From a virus (taxonomy: Duplodnaviria > Heunggongvirae > Uroviricota > Caudoviricetes): 44,188 bases of DNA. The first letter of the stretch is position 1. Each line of letters opens with the position of its first letter. Shown piece by piece: positions 3,667-43,912 of the stretch. Position numbers and translations under genes: made by a program. The stretch is from IMG/VR virus record IMGVR_UViG_2541047701_000003, one strand, 5' to 3'. The notes under the pieces are model-generated. The model searched no databases and was not told the DNA's origin. It saw nothing but the letters and a program-made list of their open reading frames with translations.

Positions 3667-6600
3667 TCAGATGCTCAGTGCTTCAAGACGACGAAGATCA
3701 AAGTCGTTTAATTCGTCGGTATAACTTTCGGTAATCGGTGCTGGCCAGTTGTTTGTCTCCAGAGCTTCGTTTATCTGTCGTAGTGTCCGGCGATATTCCT
3801 GTCGACCAAGTTCCAGGAGTTCCTGCGAGGCTTCCACGACGGCCACCCAGTGATAGCCAGCATCTTTGTTGACGAAGATCCAGAAAAATTTGTCCAGGTT
3901 TGCCACATCGCAATACATTGCTGCGCTGAGGTGATAATCACGTTCAATAATTTCACGGTGCAGGCGATCTTTCAGTCGTTCCTGTCGCACATAACCGAGG
4001 CTGACTGACTTCACGTCGGCGCAAATGCTTTCGTATGGCAGCCGGATTTCGATATCAGGACGGACCCTGATTTCCAGCCCGGTTTCTTCATCAAACCCGA
4101 AATAGCTGATTTCAGATTTGCGATCCGGGTGGTTGAGTAGCCTTGCTGCATCGGTATTGTTTTGCAGTGCCGCGTGAATATTTTTTGCCTGTTCATACAT
4201 ATCCGGACTGATAAACGTTTTCCCGGCGTTTTCTTCTTGCTGGCGTTTTTGCCAGTCCTCCAGCGTCACCAGTTCCGGGCGAATTTTCCGCGCGATTTCG
4301 GTTAATTGCTCTTTTGTGCCACTGATGTTGTAAGGCAAAGATTTAGCACGTTCTTTTTTTGCCAGTTCTGGGTCTACAGCTTCAATTTGATCCAGAAGCT
4401 GCTCCCGTGCTCCACTGGTTTTCAACAGAGGAGGGAGGCTTGCGTTGTATTCTTTAATACAGGCTTTCATTGCTGATGCTGTGTGTTTTTCCCCCTCAGG
4501 AATACGCCGAAATTCCACCGGAAGCGAACCGTAAAGGATGCCTGTTTCTTCGGCCCCAGCACTTATAGACAGTGGCTGTATAAGAGTGCTGTTGTAGCTT
4601 TCGATCCACTCTTTCATCTGCTCTGGTGTCATCAGTGCTGGCAGACTGGCATTGTGTTTTTTAATGATGGCGATCAGTTCGTTAGAAGTAGTAACCACAT
4701 ATTCAGGAACCGGTACCGGAATGGCATATTCATCAGCGAATTTATCCGTTTCCAGAACATAGCTGTGAATGATCCGCCCACGCAGCAGTGCATCACTTTC
4801 CTCGTTCGGAATAGTTCCGGCAATGTGCCGCCCGTGGTAATACATCAGGCTGATACGGGCATCCTTCAGCATCGTGCTGCTTATTCCGTTGGCGGAGTGA
4901 TAAACCTCGTTCGGGAGGTTTTCATAGCGGCCAGGCTCGAAATATGATGGCCACATGATTTCAGTTACTACAGGTGCTGTCGCTTCACCAGTTTCATCAC
5001 CGCAATCGCGATGCAGATCGCTGCCAGCATTCTCATTGTGCGGATGTTCAGGGCCTTCCATTTCCTCCGGCTCTTTTTCCTGAGATTCATCCAGATTTTC
5101 TTCATTAAAGGTTTCCTGATACGTTGCGTCGCCCATCACCGCGCCACAGTCAGGACAGTTGCCGCCGCCAGTCTGACCGCAGGCGGTGCAAACTTTCTCC
5201 GTTTCCTGTTGTTGCACTACTGGCTCAGGCTGTTTCGTTTCTGGCTCGTTTTGTTGCGTATTTGGGTCGTTCTGTTCCGTTTCTGGCTGATTCTGGTACA
5301 CAGAATCGCGGGTCTGGATCCCCTTAACCCATTTCGGATCATTCGGGTCGCTAATCCCTTCAACAAATTCTCCGCGAGAGGCAGCCAGTAATTTGTCTGC
5401 ATCGACAGGATTTTTGGGCGGAATGTTTTTCCGGGCTTCATAGAGTTCTGCCCGCAGTTTCTGATATTTCGCATCAACAGAATTTACCTGTGACTGAGCA
5501 TCCAGCGGCTGCGTGTCCTGATGATGTTCAGTTGCATCCGGTTCCACTGTTTCAGCCGTTGCCTGTTCATCTGCCATTGCGCAAGATGGTTGCAGTTTTT
5601 CTTCATCATCCTGTTTTTCTTCTTCTGTTACACGCTGCGGCATCGGGGCAGAGGAACGACCGCAGGCAATATCCACGATTTCTGGATCAGGGTTGGCATG
5701 ATCAGTTTCAGTCAGTACTTTGTTAAGATATTCAGTGACGTGTGCGGGGATAACCTCGATCCCAATTGGTGCTTCTTTTACGGACGCAACCACGATGGCG
5801 CGGGAATAATCCAGCCCGCCAGGCATGGTGATGAATTTGTCGCGGAAAACAGAAAAGGGCGGTTTATTTTCAGCGATAATTTCCTCGACACGTTTAGCGT
5901 GTGCCGGATGAAGGTTATAAATGTCCACGTCCATTGAACGAGCCAGTACGCCAGTCGCTACGTCGCGCGCCAGTGACGTCAGATCGTGAACGAAACCTTC
6001 GCCGCGATCGGTGAGGTTCCCGCCGCCAGCATTAGCGCCGGAAGCCGTGCGCGTGATGCATGAAACACGATTTCCTTTCATCCACTCTTTTGTCAGCAGA
6101 CCGCGATCGGTGTAGTCTGCGTCCAGGTATGCTTCGAAAAAAGCAGTCATCAGCCCCAGGCTTGAATTGCCTGGATTAGGGAAAACTCTGTCAGTATCAC
6201 GCACCAGTTTGTGGAGATCGCGAATTTCCAGCGGGTCGAGCAGGCTGGTTTTGTGGGAAACAGCCAGGGCAGTAACAGCTGGTAGTTCTTCAGCTCGTGC
6301 AATGTGTAATGCCTGTAGTTCGTCGCGTGAAACGTGCGTTACCGGTTTTTCGCTGCCGTGTTGAGCAAGCCAGCGAATGGGCAGCTCCTGACCGGAAATC
6401 GGGAGTAGCATATTCTCCTCAATCTCCGTCATGTCTTCGCCATTAACATTGGTATTGTCAGTGCTGGCTGGTTTGTCCTGCGCAGAGGATGAGGGCGTGA
6501 TAAATACCATTGTGATGCCATCTTCCCCGCCTTTTTCGTAACGGTTGCAGAATTCCGTATCAAATACGCCTTCTGGTGGAAGGTCATCAACAACGGGCAA

Positions 6601-16697: not shown

Positions 16698-16987
16698 TGG
16701 TGGATTTACGTAAAGCGGCGCGGGGGCAGATGTGCACCGTCAGAATTCCTGGCTACTGCAATCACAATCCCGAAACTTCTGTGCTGGCGCATTACAGGCT
16801 GGCGGGGACGTGCGGAACAGCGACAAAACCACACGATATGCAGGCAGCGATTGCCTGTAGCTCATGCCACGATTTAATCGACGGGCGGGTAAAAACCAGC
16901 GATTACACCAAAGAAGAATTACGCCTGATGCATGCAGAAGGTGTTTTTCGCACACAAGAAATCTGGAGAAAGGAAGGTTATTTATGA
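16697..16987 (+). CDS. DUF1364-like protein (YbcO-like, putative nuclease, Cys-rich)
   Basis: 96 aa with C..C / C..C..H motifs; ATG overlaps previous stop. Confidence 0.5.
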   Translation: MVDLRKAARGQMCTVRIPGYCNHNPETSVLAHYRLAGTCGTATKPHDMQAAIACSSCHDLIDGRVKTSDYTKEELRLMHAEGVFRTQEIWRKEGYL

Positions 16988-17538
16988 TTTACCCAACAAA
17001 TACAGGCAAAAGCGGGGAACACCTTCGTCTCACCACGCTGGAAAGAGTCTGGATTCAGGGAAAACTGCGCATGTGGGGGCGCTGGTCGTATATTGGCGGC
17101 GGTAAGACGGGAAATATGTTCAACCAGTTGCTGACCTCTAAAAAGCTGACAAAAACGGCAATTAACGAGGCGCTCCGGAGGATGAAAAAAGCAGGTCTGG
17201 ACAAACCTGAACTTGAGGCTTTTTTGCGGGATATGATCAACGGCAAGCAAAAAAGCTGGCTGGTGCATTGTACTGATGCAGAGGCGTTATGCATTGATCG
17301 TGTGATTAGTGAAGTGCTGGCAGAACACCCAGGATTGATTTGTATCCTCCGGCAACGATATGAAGGGAGGGGGATGACTAAGCGAAAAATGGCTGAATTG
17401 CTGAATGATTCACACCCTGAGTGGTGTTACGCCACGTGCCGTAATCGCATAGATGCGTGGTTGAAAATGGCAGAGTTTATGCTCTATCTGCCGATGCGTG
17501 ATGCATTCTCTTCCGGGGATCTAAAAACCGTCTGTTGA
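16984..17538 (+). CDS. Late-gene antiterminator Q-like protein
   Basis: 184 aa; RMWGRWSYIGGG motif reminiscent of Q-family; immediately followed by promoter plus terminator (pR'/tR' arrangement). Confidence 0.5.
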   Translation: MIYPTNTGKSGEHLRLTTLERVWIQGKLRMWGRWSYIGGGKTGNMFNQLLTSKKLTKTAINEALRRMKKAGLDKPELEAFLRDMINGKQKSWLVHCTDAEALCIDRVISEVLAEHPGLICILRQRYEGRGMTKRKMAELLNDSHPEWCYATCRNRIDAWLKMAEFMLYLPMRDAFSSGDLKTVC

Positions 17539-19171: not shown

Positions 19172-19269
19172 CGTTGTTAGGCTCCGGAAACATCCTCGAC
19201 TTCTTGTGAGCAAGCCTGAGAGCCTGAATCTTACATTTAGCACCATCCGAACTCTCGGAGGTGAGGCTT

Positions 19270-19611
19270 ATGAAAATGCACAATGCCCCTCATTCCTGGC
19301 CTGACTTACTGGAACTCTTACAAAGTTGGTGGCGTGGAGATACGCCGCTGGGCGCAGTGGTCATGTCAATTATTATGGCTGGTTTGCGCATTGCCTATTT
19401 TGGCGGTGGCGGCGGCTGGAAACGAAAAACGCTTGAGATTCTGCTTTGTGGTGCCCTGACGCTGACCTTTGCATCCGCGCTTGAGTACGTTGGATGGCCT
19501 AAATCACTTTCTGTTGCCATTGGTGGTGGGGTGGGGCTGATTGGTGTTGATGCTATTCGTGGTGCGGCAATGAGGGTCATCGGTAACAAGTTTGGTGCCC
19601 ATAAGGAGTAA
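19270..19611 (+). CDS. Holin with lambda-S-like dual start (MKM...)
   Basis: 113 aa; Met-Lys-Met start, hydrophobic segments, basic C-terminus; precedes endolysin; GGAGG SD. Confidence 0.55.
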   Translation: MKMHNAPHSWPDLLELLQSWWRGDTPLGAVVMSIIMAGLRIAYFGGGGGWKRKTLEILLCGALTLTFASALEYVGWPKSLSVAIGGGVGLIGVDAIRGAAMRVIGNKFGAHKE

Positions 19612-31918: not shown

Positions 31919-32095
31919 CGTTTAACAGCCTGCCGGACGGGCTGTCCTACCTTCTCAATCCGGTTGACGCCGGGTTAATTCCCTATACAGCACTTAAAGA
32001 TGGCTCTGTCGATTTGTATGACATTGCTCTCTTGAATGACCATCTGGCGGTAAAAGCGGATAACCAGCGGCGCATTGAGAAATGGAGAGAGGATA

Positions 32096-34081
32096 ATGAA
32101 CGCTGAAACTATTAAAGATTTCCTCGTCTCGCTTGGCTTCAGTGTGGATGATGCAGGAGCGAAAAAGTTCGGTTCTGTCCTCGCCGGTACAACTGCAAAT
32201 GTCATCAAAATGGGGCTGGCTGTTGAAGGAGCTGCGCTGTCCGTGGTGGCCTTCACGGCTAAGATCGCCTCCGGCCTGGATAATCTTTACTGGGCGTCAC
32301 AGCGCACCGGTGCGACGGTCCAGGGAATTCAGTCTATTGGCTATGCGGTTTCGCAGGTTGGCGGCAGCGTGGACGCTGCGCGATCTTCTCTGGAAAGCCT
32401 CTCCCGGTTTATTCGTAACAATCCCGGGGCGGAAGGCTTCCTGAATCGCCTTGGTGTACAGACCCGTGACGCCAGCGGCAACATGCGTGACATGGCCGCT
32501 ATTTTTACAGGTGTAGGCCAGAAGCTCAGCGGTATGCCGTATTACCGGGCTAACCAGTATGCGCAGATGCTGGGCATTGACGAAAATACCCTGATGGCCA
32601 TGCGTCGTGGTGTGGGGCAGTTCAGCGCTCAGTATTCAGAAATGGTGAAAGCGATCGGATTTAATGCCGATCAGGCTGCCTTATCGTCAAACCGGTTTAT
32701 GACCTCGCTGAAATCGCTCGGTGAAATGGCCGGGATGGCGCGGGACAAAATCGGATCGAATCTTGCGGACGGACTGGCGGGGCAGATTGATAACCTGCGC
32801 AAAAAGATAATTGAAAATTTTCCCAAAATTGAAGTCACCATCACAAAGGTCATAAAGGGGATCCTCTGGCTGGGTGAGATAGTCGGGCGGGTAGCATTTC
32901 GGATAGTCGATGGTGTCGGAGATATCATCGAGTGGTGGGGGAAACTGGATGCCGAAACGAAAACCCTGATAGAGGTTATCGGCGGTCTGGTTGTCGCCAT
33001 GCGGATACTTAACTCTACTTTCTGGATGTCACCTATAGGGCTGATTACCGGTCTGATCGTGGCTCTCGGTCTCTTGTGGGAAGACTACAAAACATGGAAA
33101 GAAGGCGGTAACAGTCTTATCGACTGGGAAAAATGGCAACCGGCAATAGATAAAGCGAAGGATGCGATCACCTGGCTTCGTGATCACCTTCTGGAACTAA
33201 AAGATGGTGTTGGCGGCTGGCAAAATGCACTGGAAATCCTCGGTACATTCATCGCGGGTGTCTGGGTATCCAAGGTTCTGGGGGCTTTCGGGAAAATATC
33301 TGGTTTGCCGGTACCGCCATGGTTAAAAGGCTGGATGGCTTATGCTGCTTATTTGTACTCCGATCGCGAAAATATTGGTGCCAGTGCGAAGTCATCCTGG
33401 GATTACACGAAACAAAATATTGGAGATTCATTGCGCTGGCTTGGCATTGATACCGATTTTGGTCGTAATCCTCATACCGTAAAAGGCGCAAATATTCAGT
33501 CAGATATTCCAGGTGCTGAGCCGGAACAACATGCACAGGCTACGAAGCGAGGAGAACGGAATAACAATCCGGGAAACCTTAATTTTGCTGGTCAGGCGGG
33601 GGCTTCTCTTGAACGACCGGGCGGGCGATTTGCCAGATTTGAAACTGCTTTTGATGGATTACGGGCTCTTGCTCGTCAGTTAATGCTGTACGCCGGACGG
33701 GGAATAAACAGTGTGGAGAAAATTATCTCTACCTGGGCACCTGCGTCTGATAATAACAACACAACCGCGTATATCAGGGCTGTATCGCAACGACTGGGAG
33801 TGGATCCCCGGGCTGCCCTGAATATGAGCGATCCGCAAACCATGTCAGCATTGATGAGCAGCATTATCCAGCATGAGAATGGAAGAAATATCTATTCTCG
33901 AGAGCTGATTAATAAGGCTGCCGTGGCGGGAATTAGTGGCAAAGTGACAGAGGTTAACCAGCAAAATACCTACCACATTTACGGTGGCGGAGATCCGCAC
34001 GCTGTCGGTAATGAGGTTGCACGTCGGCAACAGTCTGCAAATGCTCAGGTCATGCGAAGTAATCAGGTGAGGGTGGGTTAG
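32096..34081 (+). CDS. Tail tape measure protein
   Basis: 661 aa from ATG with GGAGAGAGG SD; long helical protein with hydrophobic segments after chaperone. Confidence 0.7.
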   Translation: MNAETIKDFLVSLGFSVDDAGAKKFGSVLAGTTANVIKMGLAVEGAALSVVAFTAKIASGLDNLYWASQRTGATVQGIQSIGYAVSQVGGSVDAARSSLESLSRFIRNNPGAEGFLNRLGVQTRDASGNMRDMAAIFTGVGQKLSGMPYYRANQYAQMLGIDENTLMAMRRGVGQFSAQYSEMVKAIGFNADQAALSSNRFMTSLKSLGEMAGMARDKIGSNLADGLAGQIDNLRKKIIENFPKIEVTITKVIKGILWLGEIVGRVAFRIVDGVGDIIEWWGKLDAETKTLIEVIGGLVVAMRILNSTFWMSPIGLITGLIVALGLLWEDYKTWKEGGNSLIDWEKWQPAIDKAKDAITWLRDHLLELKDGVGGWQNALEILGTFIAGVWVSKVLGAFGKISGLPVPPWLKGWMAYAAYLYSDRENIGASAKSSWDYTKQNIGDSLRWLGIDTDFGRNPHTVKGANIQSDIPGAEPEQHAQATKRGERNNNPGNLNFAGQAGASLERPGGRFARFETAFDGLRALARQLMLYAGRGINSVEKIISTWAPASDNNNTTAYIRAVSQRLGVDPRAALNMSDPQTMSALMSSIIQHENGRNIYSRELINKAAVAGISGKVTEVNQQNTYHIYGGGDPHAVGNEVARRQQSANAQVMRSNQVRVG

Positions 34082-34668
34082 TGGATATTCTCTCTACACT
34101 TTTTCATCAGCAGAGCAGAAAAATAGGAATGATTGTTCCCAGTGTTGTTATTTCAGAGAAGCATACAGATATGCTTGAAATAACAGAGCATCCGGTAGAG
34201 GTCGGGGCCGCTGTCGCTGATCATGCCTATAAAAAACCGTCAGAAGTGGTGATGGAGGTTGGTTTCGCCGGTGGCGGCGCATTGCTGGATTTTGCCAGTA
34301 ACCTGACGGCTACCAGCCTGCTCGGCCTGAGTCCTCAGCAGACGTATCAGGAGCTACTGGATCTGCAGGAAAGCCGTATCCCCTTCGATGTGGTAACCGG
34401 TAAACGGCTGTACAGCAACATGTTGATCCGGGCGCTGGAAGTGACGACGGACAAGACAACCGAAAACGTCCTGTCCGCCGTCCTCACCCTGAGGGAGGTC
34501 ATTATCTCCCGGACACAGCAGATTACCGTCGCGGATAAAACCAACATGAAGGAAGGGGCCAGCACGTCGGCGGTACAGAACAGCGGCAACAAAACCACAA
34601 AACCTCCAGATACTTCACTGCTGAAAAGCATCACGGGTAACGTGGCGTCATTACTGGGGGGCGGCTAA
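34081..34668 (+). CDS. Putative tail/baseplate protein
   Basis: 195-aa ORF from GTG overlapping TMP stop. Confidence 0.45.
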   Translation: MDILSTLFHQQSRKIGMIVPSVVISEKHTDMLEITEHPVEVGAAVADHAYKKPSEVVMEVGFAGGGALLDFASNLTATSLLGLSPQQTYQELLDLQESRIPFDVVTGKRLYSNMLIRALEVTTDKTTENVLSAVLTLREVIISRTQQITVADKTNMKEGASTSAVQNSGNKTTKPPDTSLLKSITGNVASLLGGG

Positions 34669-34970
34669 TGACAATTCAGGAAATTCCGCTGACAGCGGAC
34701 AACCAGCAGTTCAGCATCGTCCTGGGTGGTGTCACCTGGCGGATTAGCATCATATGGCGCGATCTGTACTGGATTATGGACCTGCAGAACGACAGAGGGG
34801 AGCCGGTAATCTCCGGTATTCCTCTCGTCACTGGTGCTGACCTGCTGGCGCAGTACGCCTGTATGGGGCTTGGTTTTAAGCTGGTGGTGGTCTGTGATGA
34901 CAACACACAGGATTACCCCACAAAAACTGACCTGGGCGGTCGCAGCCATTTACTGGTATCAACGGAGTAA
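34668..34970 (+). CDS. Putative tail/baseplate protein
   Basis: 100-aa coupled ORF. Confidence 0.4.
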   Translation: MTIQEIPLTADNQQFSIVLGGVTWRISIIWRDLYWIMDLQNDRGEPVISGIPLVTGADLLAQYACMGLGFKLVVVCDDNTQDYPTKTDLGGRSHLLVSTE

Positions 34971-34972
34971 GC

Positions 34973-36037
34973 ATGTCACAGAACTGGATGAGACATTTCG
35001 AGCTGCAGCTTGTGGACGGGAACGGTCAGGGAATTGAGCTAAGTGATTTTAAAGTCACCTTTACGATCGACTGGTTCAACATCAGCAGCGCGTCCCGGGT
35101 AGGGACTATCAAAATTTATAACCTCTCGGCAGATACTGTGAACCGAATTACCGGGCAGGAGTTTTCGAAAGTGCGTCTGATTGCGGGTTACGACGGTATC
35201 GCGCCGGAGGTGTCGGCAAGCGACGTCGGGACAGTGCGGGAAGTTGACGCGGCGGACGTGGGCCAGAGTGATGGTCGCAACTACGGACTGATTTTCAGCG
35301 GTGAAATTCGCTACTCGGTCACAGGAAAAGACAGTCCGGTTGATTCCTACGTCCTGATTCAGGCAGCCGATACTGATCTGGCTTTTGCCACCAGTATAAC
35401 CTCACAGACGCTGGCTGCCGGTTACACGGTCGCTGATGTAAACCGTGCGCTGATGAAAGACTTCGAAGCCAAAGGCGCGACCGAAGGCCTGACGCCTGAA
35501 ATGCCTGCTACTGTATTCCCCCGGGGGCGGGTACTCTTTGGCATGACGCGGCATCTAATGGATAACGTAGCCGGGCAATGTGGCGCAACATGGCAATTCG
35601 TGGATGGTCAGCGCCAGATGGTGGCGAATAACGAATATGTTCATGAAGCGATTGTGCTCAACAGCGCTACCGGGCTTATTGGCATGCCGCAGCAGACTAT
35701 CGGTAACGGCGTAAACGTCCGCGCGCTTATTAATCCGAACATCCGGGTTAATGGACTCATTCAGCTGGATCAGGCTTCAGTGTATCGTACCGCGTTGTCG
35801 AACAACGATATTGCGATGGCTGGTGGTCAGATCACCGACCAGAACACGGATGGAAATATCACGCTAAGCGGCACCACATCGCAGCCTGCCAGCATCGCAA
35901 CGGATGGCGTTTATATTGTGCGCGGGATTATGTACACTGGCGACACAAGGGGCCAGGCGTGGTACATGGATATGATGTGCGAAGCGCGCGGTGCGCAGGA
36001 TATGCCATCCAGCACTGCTTTGCAGAGAGGATTATAG
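34973..36037 (+). CDS. Putative baseplate hub/tail protein
   Basis: 354-aa ORF in tail block. Confidence 0.45.
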   Translation: MSQNWMRHFELQLVDGNGQGIELSDFKVTFTIDWFNISSASRVGTIKIYNLSADTVNRITGQEFSKVRLIAGYDGIAPEVSASDVGTVREVDAADVGQSDGRNYGLIFSGEIRYSVTGKDSPVDSYVLIQAADTDLAFATSITSQTLAAGYTVADVNRALMKDFEAKGATEGLTPEMPATVFPRGRVLFGMTRHLMDNVAGQCGATWQFVDGQRQMVANNEYVHEAIVLNSATGLIGMPQQTIGNGVNVRALINPNIRVNGLIQLDQASVYRTALSNNDIAMAGGQITDQNTDGNITLSGTTSQPASIATDGVYIVRGIMYTGDTRGQAWYMDMMCEARGAQDMPSSTALQRGL

Positions 36038-36039
36038 AA

Positions 36040-36387
36040 ATGAAACGATGGATATTTTCATTGCTGGCGTTAGTGTCTGTTGGTGTAAGTGCAAACACCA
36101 TAACGATGCAATGCGGCAACTTTCGTATGGATGCGATCCCTGACTCATTATTTAAAATCAATGGCGAAACAGTAACATCCCAAAAAGTAAAAATGTTGGG
36201 TAAAGACGGTACAGGCATGCAGATCAAAATGGAGCTGATGCCTGCCAAAGATGGCAACAATTATGGGTTCGAGTATATCCATCGACCGGGCACTAAAACG
36301 CGTTTCCTGAACGTCCAGTTGTTGCAGAACAGCATGGACGCGCCGAAAATTATCGGCTCCTTCCCGTGTAAAAAAGTGCCTGGTTGA
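36040..36387 (+). CDS. Secreted protein with signal peptide (moron)
   Basis: 115 aa; MKRWIFSLLALVSVGVSA signal peptide, two Cys; lower GC than neighbours. Confidence 0.5.
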   Translation: MKRWIFSLLALVSVGVSANTITMQCGNFRMDAIPDSLFKINGETVTSQKVKMLGKDGTGMQIKMELMPAKDGNNYGFEYIHRPGTKTRFLNVQLLQNSMDAPKIIGSFPCKKVPG

Positions 36388-36400
36388 AGGCAGGCACTTT
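36373..36400. terminator. Bidirectional hairpin terminator between convergent moron genes
   Basis: AAAGTGCCTG-gttgaagg-CAGGCACTTT with T-rich flanks on both strands. Confidence 0.45.
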
Positions 36401-36406
36401 CTTTAA

Positions 36407-36772
36407 TCATTCCTTTTTGATTTCGATTTCTTCTTTAGCCTCACTGAATAGTTTAAAAAGTTCTTCATCGGTGAGGTTGCTTGCTTCGATTTTGTAGCCG
36501 CCTTTTTTGATGATTATCTTCTTACTGTGTTTTGCTCTAATCCATGCGGCCACAACAGCAGCGACGCTATAACAAACATCTTTGTTTTGGATAAATTCAA
36601 AAATGTATCCGAGTATCACTGATGCGGGTGAGGATGCAGAAGGCGCTGAATCACCTACCCGCGCCCTTACACCCATTTTTCTGGCTTCAGCGGGGATGAT
36701 CTCCTCGATATAAGGGATCAACTCTTCCCCTACGGATTTTGAGAGGCGTACTTTGAAAACTGATTTAGTCAT
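36407..36772 (-). CDS. Hypothetical protein (moron, opposite strand inside tail operon)
   Basis: 121-aa ORF, Lys/Glu/Ile-rich, AT-rich codon usage. Confidence 0.5.
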   Translation of the reverse strand: MTKSVFKVRLSKSVGEELIPYIEEIIPAEARKMGVRARVGDSAPSASSPASVILGYIFEFIQNKDVCYSVAAVVAAWIRAKHSKKIIIKKGGYKIEASNLTDEELFKLFSEAKEEIEIKKE

Positions 36773-36953
36773 AACCTTTGGCGGCTCCTTCCGGAAAAGA
36801 ATTAATGCTATATGGTCACTGGCTGGAACTTTGTTGGCTTTGGTCTTTTATGGCGAGGCAAAAATCGTTCTTAAAAACTATTGCCATCAAGATGAGCCGA
36901 AAAAGGTGTAACACCAACACCTGATAATTTATATCCTGATATTTGATCAGTAA

Positions 36954-36976
36954 CCCGCCACCCGGCGGGTTTTTTG
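36954..36976 (+). terminator. Rho-independent terminator just upstream of baseplate genes
   Basis: CCCGCC-accc-GGCGGG followed by TTTTTTG. Confidence 0.45.
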
Positions 36977-36994
36977 CTTTCTGGAGCCTACAAA

Positions 36995-37747
36995 ATGGCA
37001 GTATCTGACCAGACCCGCAGCGGCGACCTTGCCGAAACATTCAAATCCGAGCGGGAAACCACAAAGAACCAGATCCGCGTCGCTTTGCCTGGCATCGTTC
37101 AGTCATTCGATCCTGACGCGGTGACGGCGGTTGTGCAGCCTGCTATTCGTTCGGTTGAAACCGACAACGACGGCAACCGCGTAACCAAAAATTACCCGCT
37201 GCTGGTGGATGTGCCGGTGGTATTTCCGCGCGGCGGCGGCTGCACGTTAACTTTCCCGGTAAAAGCCGGCGATGAATGCCTGGTGATTTTTGCCGATCGT
37301 TGTATTGATTTCTGGTGGCAGAACGGCGGGATACAGGAGCCTGTTGATGACAGAATGCATGATTTATCGGATGCGTTTTGTATTGTCGGTCCCCAGTCGC
37401 AGGCAAGGAAGATTAGCGGTATTAATACCAGTGCCACACAGTTGCGTAGTGATGACGGCAGCACCTATTTTGAGCTTAATCCTGATACCAGGAAAATTAA
37501 AATTGTCGCTCCGGGGGGCCTTGATGTGGTTGCCCCTCTGGCTGATTTTTCTGAGAAAGTAACCATTCATGGCCTGTTAACCTGGATGGGAGGCATGGTG
37601 GGGTCTGTTGTTTCTGGTGTGGCTTCAAAAATCACTGGTGCTGTTGAGTTTTTGGGTAGCGTGAAGGCTAACGGCAAGCCAATCGATGATACGCACACTC
37701 ATGGTGGTGTTCAGCGCGGTGGAAGCAATACCGACGGAGTAAACTGA
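36995..37747 (+). CDS. Baseplate central spike protein (gpV/Mu gp45-like)
   Basis: 251 aa from ATG with TGGAG SD; PLLVDVPVVFPRGGG...GDECLVIFADRCIDFWW pattern typical of phage baseplate V proteins. Confidence 0.55.
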   Translation: MAVSDQTRSGDLAETFKSERETTKNQIRVALPGIVQSFDPDAVTAVVQPAIRSVETDNDGNRVTKNYPLLVDVPVVFPRGGGCTLTFPVKAGDECLVIFADRCIDFWWQNGGIQEPVDDRMHDLSDAFCIVGPQSQARKISGINTSATQLRSDDGSTYFELNPDTRKIKIVAPGGLDVVAPLADFSEKVTIHGLLTWMGGMVGSVVSGVASKITGAVEFLGSVKANGKPIDDTHTHGGVQRGGSNTDGVN

Positions 37748-38100
37748 TGCGATACAGACGTGAAGACGCCGATGGCGATTACACCTTTGGCAGCGGTGAT
37801 GACACCTGGCTGATTAACTCGCCTGAGGCCGTAGCACAGGCTGTGAAAACGCGATTCGAATTGTGGTATGGGCAATGGTTTCTCGACACCACCGAAGGGA
37901 CTCCGTGGATCCAGTCCGTGCTCGGTAAGCAGAAGCCGGAAACCTACAACCTGGCGATCCGTAAGCGCATCCTCGAAACGCGGGGCGTTAAATCAATCCT
38001 CTCTTTCAATACGACAGTGGATACCACGACCCGACGTGTCATGTTTTCCGCTGAAATCGACACTCTTTATGGAATAACGACTGTTACATCGGAGGCGTAA
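37747..38100 (+). CDS. Putative baseplate protein
   Basis: 117 aa, ATGA-coupled to spike gene. Confidence 0.4.
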   Translation: MRYRREDADGDYTFGSGDDTWLINSPEAVAQAVKTRFELWYGQWFLDTTEGTPWIQSVLGKQKPETYNLAIRKRILETRGVKSILSFNTTVDTTTRRVMFSAEIDTLYGITTVTSEA

Positions 38101-39299
38101 TGGCTCTGAACCTTGATTCTCTCGGTTTATCTGCAAAGGTAACTGCGGAGGGGATCAGTGCGCCTGATTATCAGACGATACTCAGCACCCTGATTAGCTA
38201 TTTTCAGCAGATTTATGGCAGTGATGCCTACCTCGAACCGGACAGCAAAGACGGCCAGATGGTGGCTCTGATGGCGCTGGCGATTCATGATGCCAATAAT
38301 ATGGCGATAACTGTCTACAACTGTTTTTCACCGGCAACCGGCTATGGGGCTGCACTGACCAGTAACGTGAAAATAAATGGTATTTCACGTAAAGGCGCGA
38401 CGAACTCTACGGTTGATTTGCTTCTTACAGGAGCTGCCGGAACAACCATCATTAATGGCAGCGTGAAAGACAGTAATAATGTGATATGGCGTTTGCCTGC
38501 TTCAGTGGTGGTCGGCGTGGATGGTACAGTGATGGCGACCGCAACATGTTCCGTCAGTGGTGCAGTGGCGGCGCTGGCTGGAACTATCACTGAAATTAAT
38601 ACGCCAACCCGTGGCTGGGTTTCGGTAACTAATCCTGCTGTGGCTACTGTGGGCACTCCGGCAGAAACTGACGCGGAGTTACGTATCCGCCAGTCGCAAA
38701 GTGTTGCGTTGCCATCAATAACCCCATTTGAAGCACTGGATGGTGCTGTTTCTAATGTTACCGGTGTAACCCGCCACAAACTCTATGAAAACGATACTGG
38801 TTCGGAGGACGGTAACGGGTTACCGCCACACTCTGTTGCTGTAATTGTGGATGGCGGTGATGTGACGGATATTGCTCAGGCTATCAGAGGAAATAAAGGC
38901 CAGGGGACAGCCACTCACGGTACAACATCCGTTACAGTTCCGGATAAATACGGCAATCCCCATGTAATCAAATTCTCGCGTTCCAGTGATGTGCCTGTTT
39001 ATGCCCGGATCAAATTAAAAGTTTTTACGGGTTATACCTCACAGATAGGGCAGCAGATCCAGCAGGCTATTTCCGACTATATCAATAGTCTGATGATTGG
39101 TGATTCGGTCCTTTTAAGTCGCATTTACTCACCGGCGAATCTTGGCGTGGTGAGTGGCGGGAATGCACGCTATTACGATATTCAGGAACTGACGATTGGG
39201 AAATCCCCGGGGGCTTTGTCGTCATCAAACATTGATATCAGATACAACGAATCTGCGTCCTGTACCCCGGAAAATATCGTTATAACGGTGGAGTCATGA
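38100..39299 (+). CDS. Putative baseplate wedge protein (J-like)
   Basis: 399 aa, coupled, position typical. Confidence 0.45.
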   Translation: MALNLDSLGLSAKVTAEGISAPDYQTILSTLISYFQQIYGSDAYLEPDSKDGQMVALMALAIHDANNMAITVYNCFSPATGYGAALTSNVKINGISRKGATNSTVDLLLTGAAGTTIINGSVKDSNNVIWRLPASVVVGVDGTVMATATCSVSGAVAALAGTITEINTPTRGWVSVTNPAVATVGTPAETDAELRIRQSQSVALPSITPFEALDGAVSNVTGVTRHKLYENDTGSEDGNGLPPHSVAVIVDGGDVTDIAQAIRGNKGQGTATHGTTSVTVPDKYGNPHVIKFSRSSDVPVYARIKLKVFTGYTSQIGQQIQQAISDYINSLMIGDSVLLSRIYSPANLGVVSGGNARYYDIQELTIGKSPGALSSSNIDIRYNESASCTPENIVITVES

Positions 39300-42618: not shown

Positions 42619-42951
42619 ACTGATGCATTATACAAGTAATGCTGTTATTGAGGAAAGTTTAAAGAAGCGGCTCTTCTCCGCCTGTAAAGTTTGGTCATTA
42701 TTGCTTTATATATAAGTTCCACCAGTAGGCGATCATCTATGATGTTGGCGTATCGACTTTGTATAAGAAGTTTCCAGTCGGAGATAAATGAAACCGTAGC
42801 ACGTCGTATGCAAGAACGTGCCACGGCTGGCTGATGGACGTTCGATAGCGCGAGTTTGAATGAAAATCAGCCGGAGGTGATTTTACATAATTGTTGCGGA
42901 ATCATTCAATATAGGGATTGCTTATTTCTGCCTGGATTGGTCTGAAATAGT

Positions 42952-42980
42952 CCCGAAATTTTCTCTAAAAAACTCGAAAA
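42952..42980. promoter_or_regulatory. Candidate integrase arm-type sites (right arm)
   Basis: cccgaaatt and actcgaaaa, matching motifs next to attL. Confidence 0.3.
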
Positions 42981-43095
42981 AAATGGTAACTAATTGAATG
43001 CATTAATATGCAATGGTACGTGTTTGGGATTAAAAGATGAGCGTGATTTTGTTTAACACATTAATTTAAAAAGGGTTTCTTGTTTGTTGACGAAA

Positions 43096-43121
43096 ACAGG
43101 AATCGTGTTCGGTCTCTTTTT
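43096..43121. repeat. attR core (direct repeat, displaced copy of sdsR 3' end)
   Basis: acaggaatcgtgttcggtctcttttt matches 577..602 at 24 of 26 positions. Confidence 0.6.
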
Positions 43122-43255
43122 ATCTGTTAAAAGCCAGAAGCATTCCCTTCGCTGACTTTATAGTCAACCATAACACACACTCTACTGTCTGAGTCCAGCG
43201 TTTTTTAACATTCTTGTTAAGATTATGTGATCTTTAGCGCGGGAGGAAAATATTG

Positions 43256-43912
43256 ATGAAACAGCCTGCGCCCGTTTATCAGAGAATTGCGGGTCATCAA
43301 TGGCGACATATCTGGCTTTCAGGCGATATACACGGTTGTCTTGAGCAGTTGCGCCGCAAATTATGGCATTGTCGTTTTGATCCGTGGCGAGATTTACTTA
43401 TCTCAGTGGGAGACGTTATCGATCGTGGGCCGCAAAGTTTACGTTGCCTGCAGTTACTGGAACAACATTGGGTTCGTGCGGTAAGAGGCAATCATGAACA
43501 GATGGCGATGGATGCGCTGGCATCCCGGCAGATGTCTTTATGGTTGATAAATGGCGGCGACTGGTTTATTGCGCTGGCAGATAATCAACAGAAACAAGCG
43601 AAAACGGCGCTGGAAAAATGTCAGCATTTGCCCTTTATTCTTGAATTACACAGTCGCACCGGCAAACATGTTATTGCTCATGCCGATTATCCAGATGATG
43701 TCTATGAATGGCAAAAGGACGTCGATTTGCATCAGGTCTTGTGGAGCCGCTCGCGATTAGGTGAACGCCAAAAAGGGCAGGGAATTGCAGGTGCTGATCA
43801 TTTCTGGTTTGGTCATACACCTTTGCGCCATCGCGTGGATATTGGCAACCTGCATTATATTGATACCGGTGCTGTCTTTGGGGGAGAACTGACTCTTGTG
43901 CAATTGCAATAA
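43256..43912 (+). CDS. pphA: Serine/threonine protein phosphatase 1 (PrpA/PphA)
   Basis: 218 aa MKQPAPVYQRIAGHQWRHIWLSGDIHGC...; metallophosphatase motifs GDxHG, GDxxDRG, GNHE; GGGAGG SD. Confidence 0.85.
   Translation: MKQPAPVYQRIAGHQWRHIWLSGDIHGCLEQLRRKLWHCRFDPWRDLLISVGDVIDRGPQSLRCLQLLEQHWVRAVRGNHEQMAMDALASRQMSLWLINGGDWFIALADNQQKQAKTALEKCQHLPFILELHSRTGKHVIAHADYPDDVYEWQKDVDLHQVLWSRSRLGERQKGQGIAGADHFWFGHTPLRHRVDIGNLHYIDTGAVFGGELTLVQLQ

Follow-up and report, generated by a model that had tools for sequence, protein, structure and literature searches.

EACC1 was defined as a small alpha+beta protein whose conserved central helix is hydrophobic and abounds in small residues, and its gene adjoins one for a caspase-like protease (Kaur et al. 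2020, PMC7159879). It is an autoinhibited monomer whose cleavage at Asp49 yields fragments of 5.7 and 7.1 kDa, the C-terminal one of which oligomerises into membrane pores (Evans et al. 2025, 10.1101/2025.11.14.688446). In prophages of Staphylococcus aureus, the Tha/Ith system couples defence to the life cycle through a small overlapping antisense gene that switches the defence gene off on induction (PMC11087260). Here we describe a locus with likenesses to both, namely positions 36040-36976 of the virus record IMGVR_UViG_2541047701_000003 (44,188 nucleotides (nt), analysed as a whole and called the window below), an E. coli prophage in which a block of genes lies between the hub and spike genes of a contractile-tail baseplate. 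At a probability that we put at roughly 45%, the best explanation of this block as a whole, inferred roles included, is a composite, in which a resident gene for an exported protein, open reading frame 1 (ORF1), stands next to a swappable cargo slot that here holds a rare two-gene cassette, consisting of ORF2 and an overlapping small ORF (smORF).

We are highly confident of the anatomy itself, i.e. a conserved ORF1, a terminator-bounded slot and three genes in all. Its features, including both anchor genes, are as follows (aa, amino acids):

34973-36037, plus strand: baseplate hub gene, the left anchor (matches Pfam E217_GP41 below the curated cut-off, 22.8 vs 27 bits)
36040-36387, plus strand: ORF1, 115-aa exported protein of phrog_3443 with a signal peptide (aa 1-18), a mature part of 97 aa and two invariant cysteines
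36369-36405, both strands: bidirectional intrinsic-terminator hairpin at the left slot edge, core stem 36376-36382 / 36391-36397
36391-36951, no strand: variable cargo slot, delimited by homology breakpoints and a cargo catalogue, here with the ORF2/smORF cassette
36407-36772, minus strand: ORF2, 121-aa alpha/beta protein, antisense to the late operon and putatively EACC1-like by transitive homology
36753-36911, plus strand: smORF, very probable gene for a 52-aa small membrane protein, with a TTG start and GAGAGG 6 nt upstream
36935-36952, plus strand: invariant 18-nt element CCTGATATTTGATCAGTA, a palindrome (CTGAT/ATCAG) that contains GATC, between smORF stop and terminator
36952-36977, plus strand: backbone intrinsic terminator at the right slot edge, AACCCGCC-ACCC-GGCGGGTT plus T-run
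36995-37747, plus strand: baseplate spike gene, the right anchor (Pfam spike N-terminal domain at 3e-44 plus Apex motif; RefSeq start confirmed)

The division into resident gene and slot is seen in two samples, one of 80 IMG/VR viral contigs whose hub protein is 96.6-100% identical to that of the window (79 loci catalogued from hub to spike) and another of 74 loci built around a hub that is only ~64% identical. The ORF1 family directly follows the hub in 72/79 and 71/74 loci, respectively, and the ORF2/smORF cassette is found in 3/79 and 7/74. DNA similarity to relatives ends at 36374-36393, within the first hairpin, and returns where the terminator stem begins, at 36952 (in a few loci at 36963 or 36982); the swappable unit lies between the two terminators, at about 36391-36951. 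The commonest cargo of the slot (35/79 loci) is a 243-256 aa protein together with a weakly HEPN-like protein of 142-153 aa, and others include the YafO toxin with a 192-aa protein, DUF4282, a weakly PycTM-like 184-aa membrane protein, DUF2335 and more; for most of these other cargos, PADLOC and NCBIfam return no matches. Two loci (L070, L074) carry a 94-aa Cys-rich minus-strand ORF in the slot. In Hafnia phage yong1 (L002, 2987-3055), just the last 23 codons of ORF1 remain (83% identical), directly upstream of the ORF2 cassette, a remnant which suggests that the cassette is moved by recombination in two places, the 3' end of ORF1 and the 5' region of terminator and spike.

Both slot edges, listed as hairpin and terminator in the initial annotation, are stable structures. 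The hairpin between ORF1 and ORF2 carries the ORF1 stop codon in its loop and T-runs on both strands, with a folding free energy (dG) of -16.3 kcal/mol on the plus and -17.6 kcal/mol on the minus strand (z -4.8 and -5.95; 0/200 shuffles as stable), and the terminator immediately before the spike gene (36952-36971 plus T6) folds at a dG of -15.4 (z -3.96). The latter, AACCCGCC-loop-GGCGGGTTTTTT, recurs in 65/79 scanned loci irrespective of the cargo and shows one compensatory pair change in phage yong1; it belongs to the backbone, not to the insert. A hairpin also follows ORF2 in most lineages. It should be said that terminator-like sites are not more numerous in the region than expected by chance (3 vs 2.0 +/- 1.8), so the weight of this evidence lies in stability and conservation rather than in the number of sites. 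An Rfam scan of 35800-37200 found nothing near the gathering score.

These data bear directly on the view, taken initially, that ORF1 and ORF2 form one recently inserted two-gene moron for superinfection exclusion or host interaction. The block as a whole is indeed lower in GC content than its structural neighbours (0.445 for ORF1, 0.423 for ORF2 and 0.397 for intergenic DNA vs 0.540 for the hub and 0.522 for the spike gene), albeit not extreme for the window, where 8% of 912-bp segments are lower still (8th percentile), and it has terminators and ORF1 alleles that are far more diverse (52-99% identity) than the hub (at least 96.6%). On the other side, more than 90% of relatives, deep ones included, have ORF1 in this position as against 4-9% with ORF2, the homology breakpoints part one gene from the other, the cassette of L005 sits after the spike, away from ORF1's position and travelling without it, and a third gene (smORF) is present, which had been missed. 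Hence to our minds a single two-gene insertion is very improbable, and the term moron holds for the rare, AT-rich and terminator-bracketed cassette at 36391-36951 but not for ORF1. Nor does ORF1, itself coupled to the hub, interrupt a tightly coupled operon, as had been claimed for the block. Conservation of the genes as structural components of homologous phages had been named at the outset as an observation that would speak against a moron, and what we find in part is such conservation for ORF1, though the protein is unlikely to be structural. The first observation was thus sound but incomplete, and its interpretation half right.

Compared with classical lambdoid morons (Juhala/Hendrix definition; review PMC3594210), the cassette is similarly AT-richer than its surroundings, terminator-flanked, placed between late genes and variable among close relatives. 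It differs in that only 36391-36951 fits the definition while ORF1 does not, that no promoter was identified and that two overlapping divergent genes take the place of one promoter-gene-terminator unit. ST64B with SseK3, considered as a precedent for a tail-region moron, was rejected, as the ST64B tail is Mu-like and sseK3 follows the tail-fibre assembly gene. A classical example of a moron in lambdoid phages is gp15 of HK97.

We see ORF1 as a long-standing conserved gene of the tail module of SEN34-like temperate myoviruses and not as a recent insert, because it occupies the same place in most loci, does so even at ~30% identity and has a low ratio of nonsynonymous to synonymous substitution rates (dN/dS). 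Within the mature protein this ratio comes to 0.12 over the C-terminal two thirds and to 0.24 over the N-terminal part, so that selection on ORF1 is purifying. The ATG of the gene stands 2 nt past the hub stop codon with GAGAGG upstream, i.e. ORF1 is translationally coupled to the hub. The product, which matches phrog_3443 at E 1e-51, was described initially as a secreted 115-aa protein with a signal peptide and two cysteines, and this is upheld at 36040-36387: its N-terminal n/h/c layout is that of a Sec signal peptide without a lipobox, and across 46 distinct alleles the signal positions -1 (A18, 0.26 bit) and -3 (V16, 0.43 bit) are constrained relative to the rest (1-2 bits), while C25 and C110 are invariant. 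Relatives are few (44 representatives in an exhaustive profile search); profile matches in giant PKD/Ig-repeat proteins were rejected as homologues on account of beta-strand bias. Those distant relatives that can be placed, a protein of ~30% identity and a 292-aa lipoprotein with the ORF1 domain at its C-terminus, keep the site and the coupling to the hub stop. Where the ORF1 family is missing, the gene after the hub is still of the exported type and specifies a lipoprotein of 241 aa or a 158-aa product bearing a signal peptide. The loci concerned, including the 292-aa lipoprotein variant, are:

L031, L032, L034, L063, L073 (~5068-5793): alternative exported gene after the hub
L002, 2520-2996: alternative exported gene after the hub
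L016: alternative exported gene after the hub
L095, 5001-5879: alternative exported gene after the hub

In relatives with another ORF1 allele or none, DNA similarity to the window drops as early as ~40 bases before the hub stop (35994-36037), so that the last ~14 hub codons travel with the ORF1 allele. When ORF1 alleles were compared with those of tape measure, Dit, plug, spike, W and J, the sole linkage was that with the hub.

AlphaFold2 returns a confident eight-stranded barrel for ORF1 (per-residue confidence, pLDDT, 83 overall and ~86-91 over most of the mature part), and a Sec-exported eight-stranded beta-barrel is what we predict. The earlier guess of a periplasmic beta-barrel inhibitor-like fold is compatible with this model, as are PliC/MliC (PF09864) and PhiA, which are periplasmic beta-barrel inhibitors of hydrolases (of lysozyme for PliC/MliC), and yet the likeness is unspecific: avidins, Cap15 and DUF1842 score equal to or above PliC/MliC in structure comparison, so the fold match is generic. 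Moreover, a Pfam scan assigned ORF1 to no family, and thus not to MliC. A fold search of BFVD produced no match at E<=0.001, and among PDB sequences no significant match was obtained with a profile of ORF1, of ORF2 or of the ORF2 superfamily as a whole. The conserved loop motifs that we take to mark MliC/PliC are not seen in the ORF1 sequence either. As for superinfection exclusion, T4 Spackle and Glo of Vibrio phage K139 are small periplasmic proteins with that function whose genes are not known to belong to tail operons. Their likeness to ORF1 is a functional analogy, for which no relationship in sequence or fold was seen.

What our data point to for ORF1 is an envelope-side role that the tail lineage almost never gives up. 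A periplasmic exclusion factor against related phages is our preferred, if tentative, reading of this role. A somewhat more doubtful one is that ORF1 acts in the phage's own lytic cycle, for instance by modulating envelope breakdown or, less likely still, as baseplate assembly factor or virion component. Coupling to the hub without a promoter of its own, near-universal synteny in the tail module and purifying selection all speak for such a lytic role. However, the cleavable Sec signal and the two invariant cysteines point to the periplasm and tails assemble in the cytoplasm, the alternative genes at the ORF1 position encode lipoproteins or secreted proteins, and a separate lysis cassette, encoded away from the block, looks complete. 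As an exported protein, ORF1 is unlikely to be part of the virion.

Within the slot, the convergent Lys/Glu-rich protein that had been noted initially is ORF2 (24% Lys+Glu). Its relatives are rare, with 23 clusters in 5.8 billion proteins, 3/185,579 species genomes and one sequenced phage, and they invariably lie antisense in this kind of tail module in every locus seen. Together with the genes found through the invariant motif described below, three types can be told apart at 25-31% mutual identity, and that of the window is type 1, for which a scan of the genome collection found solely three Erwiniaceae species; types 2 and 3 are absent among 50,697 GenBank phage records. Despite this divergence an hhalign comparison joins the type 1 alignment to types 2/3 over its full length (98.9% probability, E 2e-17), and it is the type 2 proteins that provide the bridge to EACC1: they score 23.6 and 25.6 bits against the Pfam EACC1 model (PF19953; gathering cut-off 23.6) with most of the model covered, and type 3 scores 18.9 bits. 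On these alignments, homology of ORF2 to EACC1 appears probable.

The comparison can be taken further. Like EACC1, ORF2 and its relatives are alpha+beta proteins of ~115-125 aa with a central small-residue helix and an Asp in a linker, and relatives reach the Pfam gathering score. Secondary structure in the AlphaFold2 model of ORF2 runs beta-alpha-beta...beta-beta-alpha-beta, and the trait of a small alpha+beta protein whose central hydrophobic helix bears a small-residue patch is found in ORF2, where the helix (64-82; VCYSVAAVVAAWIRA, or SSPACIAIASIA in type 2) is rich in Ala, Ser and Val; the model as such is too weak for fold inference. Four residues are invariant in the superfamily (M1, D41, W77, L100), and of these D41 sits at the start of the sole disordered segment of the model, a linker at 40-48 with pLDDT<50. 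A cut after D41 would yield fragments computed at 4.6 and 8.9 kDa and may be comparable to EACC1 cleavage at Asp49, although alignment and model are only suggestive of cleavage in ORF2. So it is by size, layout and a candidate cleavage site that ORF2 fits EACC1. It differs in having no adjacent gene for a caspase-like protease or sensor, its partner being an antisense-overlapping gene for a 52-aa membrane protein, and in residing in the tail operon of Enterobacterales prophages while the described systems are mostly from actinobacteria and cyanobacteria. Neighbours of ORF2 in the loci examined are ORF1, smORF and spike, or baseplate genes. Judged by sequence comparison, ORF2 is therefore best called EACC1-like, and not a member of the described two-gene system.

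The partner gene came to light through unexpected conservation upstream of ORF2 in a cross-lineage alignment, which was then translated. The frame in question, smORF, is the sole one of six that is open in all seven lineages, and its 5' end overlaps that of ORF2 head-to-head by 20 nt. Outside the overlap, substitutions are distributed over codon positions 1/2/3 as 231/112/382, and dN/dS is 0.08-0.26 where computable as opposed to 0.4-4 (mostly >1) for the other two plus-strand registers. The type 1 start codon, either TTG or GTG, keeps its position, and GAGAGG stands 6-7 bases upstream of it; all three cassette types carry such an overlapping ORF, which is 52-55 codons long and in types 2 and 3 begins with ATG. 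From these alignments smORF appears conserved across three deeply diverged cassette types. In the predicted product, a hydrophobic segment (Kyte-Doolittle 1.87 over 15 aa) comes after a basic cluster.

Reservations about smORF as a gene are understandable, since the ORF is short, lacks an ATG start in type 1 and goes unannotated in nearly all records: RefSeq leaves it out of the entry whose sequence is identical to the window (NZ_CP069882, L098), and in phage yong1 (MT135176, L002 3476-3595) a wrong-frame ORF of 39 aa is annotated over it. Its first 12 codons also overlap the start and Shine-Dalgarno region of ORF2, so that one might see in its apparent conservation nothing but constraint on an ORF2 leader or promoter. 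Against this stand the bias in codon positions and the low dN/dS, which are found outside the overlap and in that frame, the one frame kept open throughout, the start that is always NTG with GAGAGG upstream and the retention of a small ORF of 53-54 codons with an ATG start at the same place in the diverged types 2 and 3. A mere leader constraint is therefore highly unlikely, and smORF is very probably a real gene as far as sequence can tell. The notion that the conserved DNA encodes a minus-strand N-terminal extension of ORF2 instead was rejected, with stops interrupting it in 4/7 lineages. The exact smORF sequence is present in a protein collection, and a 52-aa cluster-mate has an NCBI entry as hypothetical protein. 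No Pfam match at E<=1 and no PADLOC match at E<=0.01 was obtained for smORF, and PHROGs gave chance-level hits only (one variant, E 0.08); NCBIfam has no matches for ORF1, ORF2 or smORF.

With Tha/Ith, the cassette shares a prophage-borne conflict gene that is overlapped by a small gene of the other strand, a non-contiguous operon layout that ORF2 and smORF display in every locus seen. There is no sequence relationship between the two systems: Tha is a HEPN protein encoded in the cI operon and Ith is soluble, whereas in our cassette it is the late operon to which the larger gene runs antisense, and the small one would encode a membrane protein. By analogy, a toxin/immunity or abortive-infection module that is switched with the life cycle is a possible, if uncertain, reading of ORF2 and smORF.

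An alternative is that ORF2 and smORF form a toxin-antitoxin addiction module, with smORF as a type I-like membrane toxin checked by the ORF2 transcript or protein and the pair stabilising the prophage. In favour of this reading, smORF is small (52 aa) with its hydrophobic segment past a basic cluster and is overlapped antisense in its 5' region; in fact, both its ribosome-binding site and its start lie inside the ORF2 coding region, so that any ORF2 mRNA is antisense to the smORF start. The same slot, moreover, holds the YafO toxin-antitoxin pair in relatives. What sets the cassette apart is that the antisense partner is no small RNA but a protein-coding gene, conserved at 116-124 aa and under constraint of its own, that smORF reads in the direction of the late operon around it, as suggestive of late expression, and that the relatives of ORF2 match a toxin rather than an antitoxin family. 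An addiction module seems unlikely on this balance.

The region between smORF and the terminator adds a further element. Here CCTGAYATTTGATCAGTA is unchanged in every lineage and conserved far beyond what its 5-bp hairpin would need, and because it is invariant, a covariation test of the motif was uninformative. A motif search of viral contigs gave 51 matches, ~35 of which precede the same terminator and spike gene, and in most of those ~35 a minus-strand gene starts 162 or 168 bases to the left (tblastn). We know of no binding-site consensus that the motif fits. Since a weak -10-like hexamer adjoins it on the minus strand in most lineages, the motif may serve as operator within a weak promoter of ORF2. 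A different proposal would make ORF2 itself a nucleic-acid-binding regulator that binds the adjacent palindrome and controls read-through into, or expression of, the downstream baseplate genes or smORF. We regard such a regulator as improbable. As a side observation, the 18-nt motif occurs also in contigs without recognisable hub, spike or ORF2 (L100, L111, L123, L148, L118, L124, L130, L145, L149), together with the same kind of terminator in L130, L145 and L149 and without a terminator in L100, L111, L123 and L148.

Returning to the composite of resident ORF1 and cargo slot, we infer the following order of events. Being translationally coupled to the hub, ORF1 would be made with the late genes, Sec-exported, cleaved after A18 and held in the periplasm as a disulfide-closed barrel, where most likely it would bind some conserved component brought into the periplasm as the tail penetrates, so that related phages would be excluded; alternatively, it may inhibit a muralytic activity. 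By moron logic, late transcription would read through both terminators, as expected because the prophage encodes a Q-type antiterminator, and in the lysogen the terminators would insulate transcription of the cargo. ORF2 might then be produced from the prophage while the late operon is silent, as a latent effector of abortive infection or exclusion, until a protease encoded elsewhere, possibly by an infecting phage, cuts after D41 to give a pore-forming fragment and the infection is aborted. On induction, Q-modified polymerase would pass the first hairpin, and its transcription would collide with and pair against that of ORF2, turning ORF2 off. The same late transcript would carry smORF in sense, and its membrane product may neutralise or partner ORF2.

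Taken to its full extent, this would amount to an undescribed prophage module in which a protease-less EACC1-like pore former, an overlapping smORF and an operator-like palindrome are armed in lysogeny, triggered by a protease in trans and disarmed on induction, with ORF1 separately being a periplasmic factor dedicated to self-exclusion in this tail lineage. We regard so far-reaching a version as rather unlikely. Several observations weigh against our preferred reading and its mechanism. Neither a consensus scan nor a weighted scan nor a comparison of positions in 12 lineages brought out a convincing promoter for ORF2 or smORF; candidates nearby are weak and not conserved in position, and a sigma-70 consensus promoter was found 0 times in the region vs 2.8 expected. 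ORF2 of the window itself has no Pfam match at E<=0.01, so that its link to EACC1 is transitive and at the family threshold, and the caspase-like protease gene, which is the defining partner of EACC1, is absent beside ORF2 in every locus examined. PADLOC finds nothing for ORF1, ORF2 or smORF. With respect to ORF1, its fold match is generic, its alleles co-vary neither with the C-terminus of the tape measure nor with the spike (Spearman r 0.02 and 0.17) and therefore indicate no target, and its coupling to late genes fits exclusion by a quiescent prophage poorly unless there is an internal promoter.

As for the setting, the E. coli FDAARGOS_1289 chromosome is 100% identical to the window at 35900-37100, and the prophage has lambda-like regulation and lysis genes, including a Q-type antiterminator-like gene (16864-17538) and an S holin (19261-19611). 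Its contractile-tail module is of the SEN34 / E217 / Pam3 kind, with the order tape measure, Dit-like, plug, hub, block, spike, 117-aa gene and baseplate J, and related phages include Salmonella SEN34, Hafnia yong1, Yersinia YP3, several vB_EcoM phages and Klebsiella myophages. The remaining genes around the block are:

34081-34668: Dit-like gene
34668-34970: plug gene
37747-38100: 117-aa gene, at the position of the sheath initiator in relatives
38100-39299: baseplate J

The C-terminal part of the tape measure (32075-34081; around GERNNNPGNLNF) resembles the lytic-transglycosylase domain of relatives (yong1 annotation; PF01464 in L095 and L096), and a Pfam scan of the window's own tape measure made no lytic-transglycosylase call at E<=0.001. 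Further downstream, a GC trough (0.35-0.40) at 42750-43200 is followed by an ORF for a calcineurin-like phosphoesterase (Metallophos, 43253-43912), downstream of the tail-fibre gene, which may be another cargo gene.

EACC1 is known as a death effector that needs a neighbouring caspase-like protease and has been characterised only recently. A phage-borne relative without the protease, tied instead to an overlapping gene for a membrane protein, would, if true, point to a different kind of toxin control and extend the EACC1 family into enterobacterial prophages. As smORF was overlooked by standard annotation, similar small partners may hide in other cargo cassettes. The slot, for its part, is a cargo hot spot in a prophage group common in E. 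coli, Klebsiella and Salmonella and should be useful for mining defence and toxin genes, while ORF1 points to a class of putatively periplasmic proteins that are hardly ever lost from this tail lineage.

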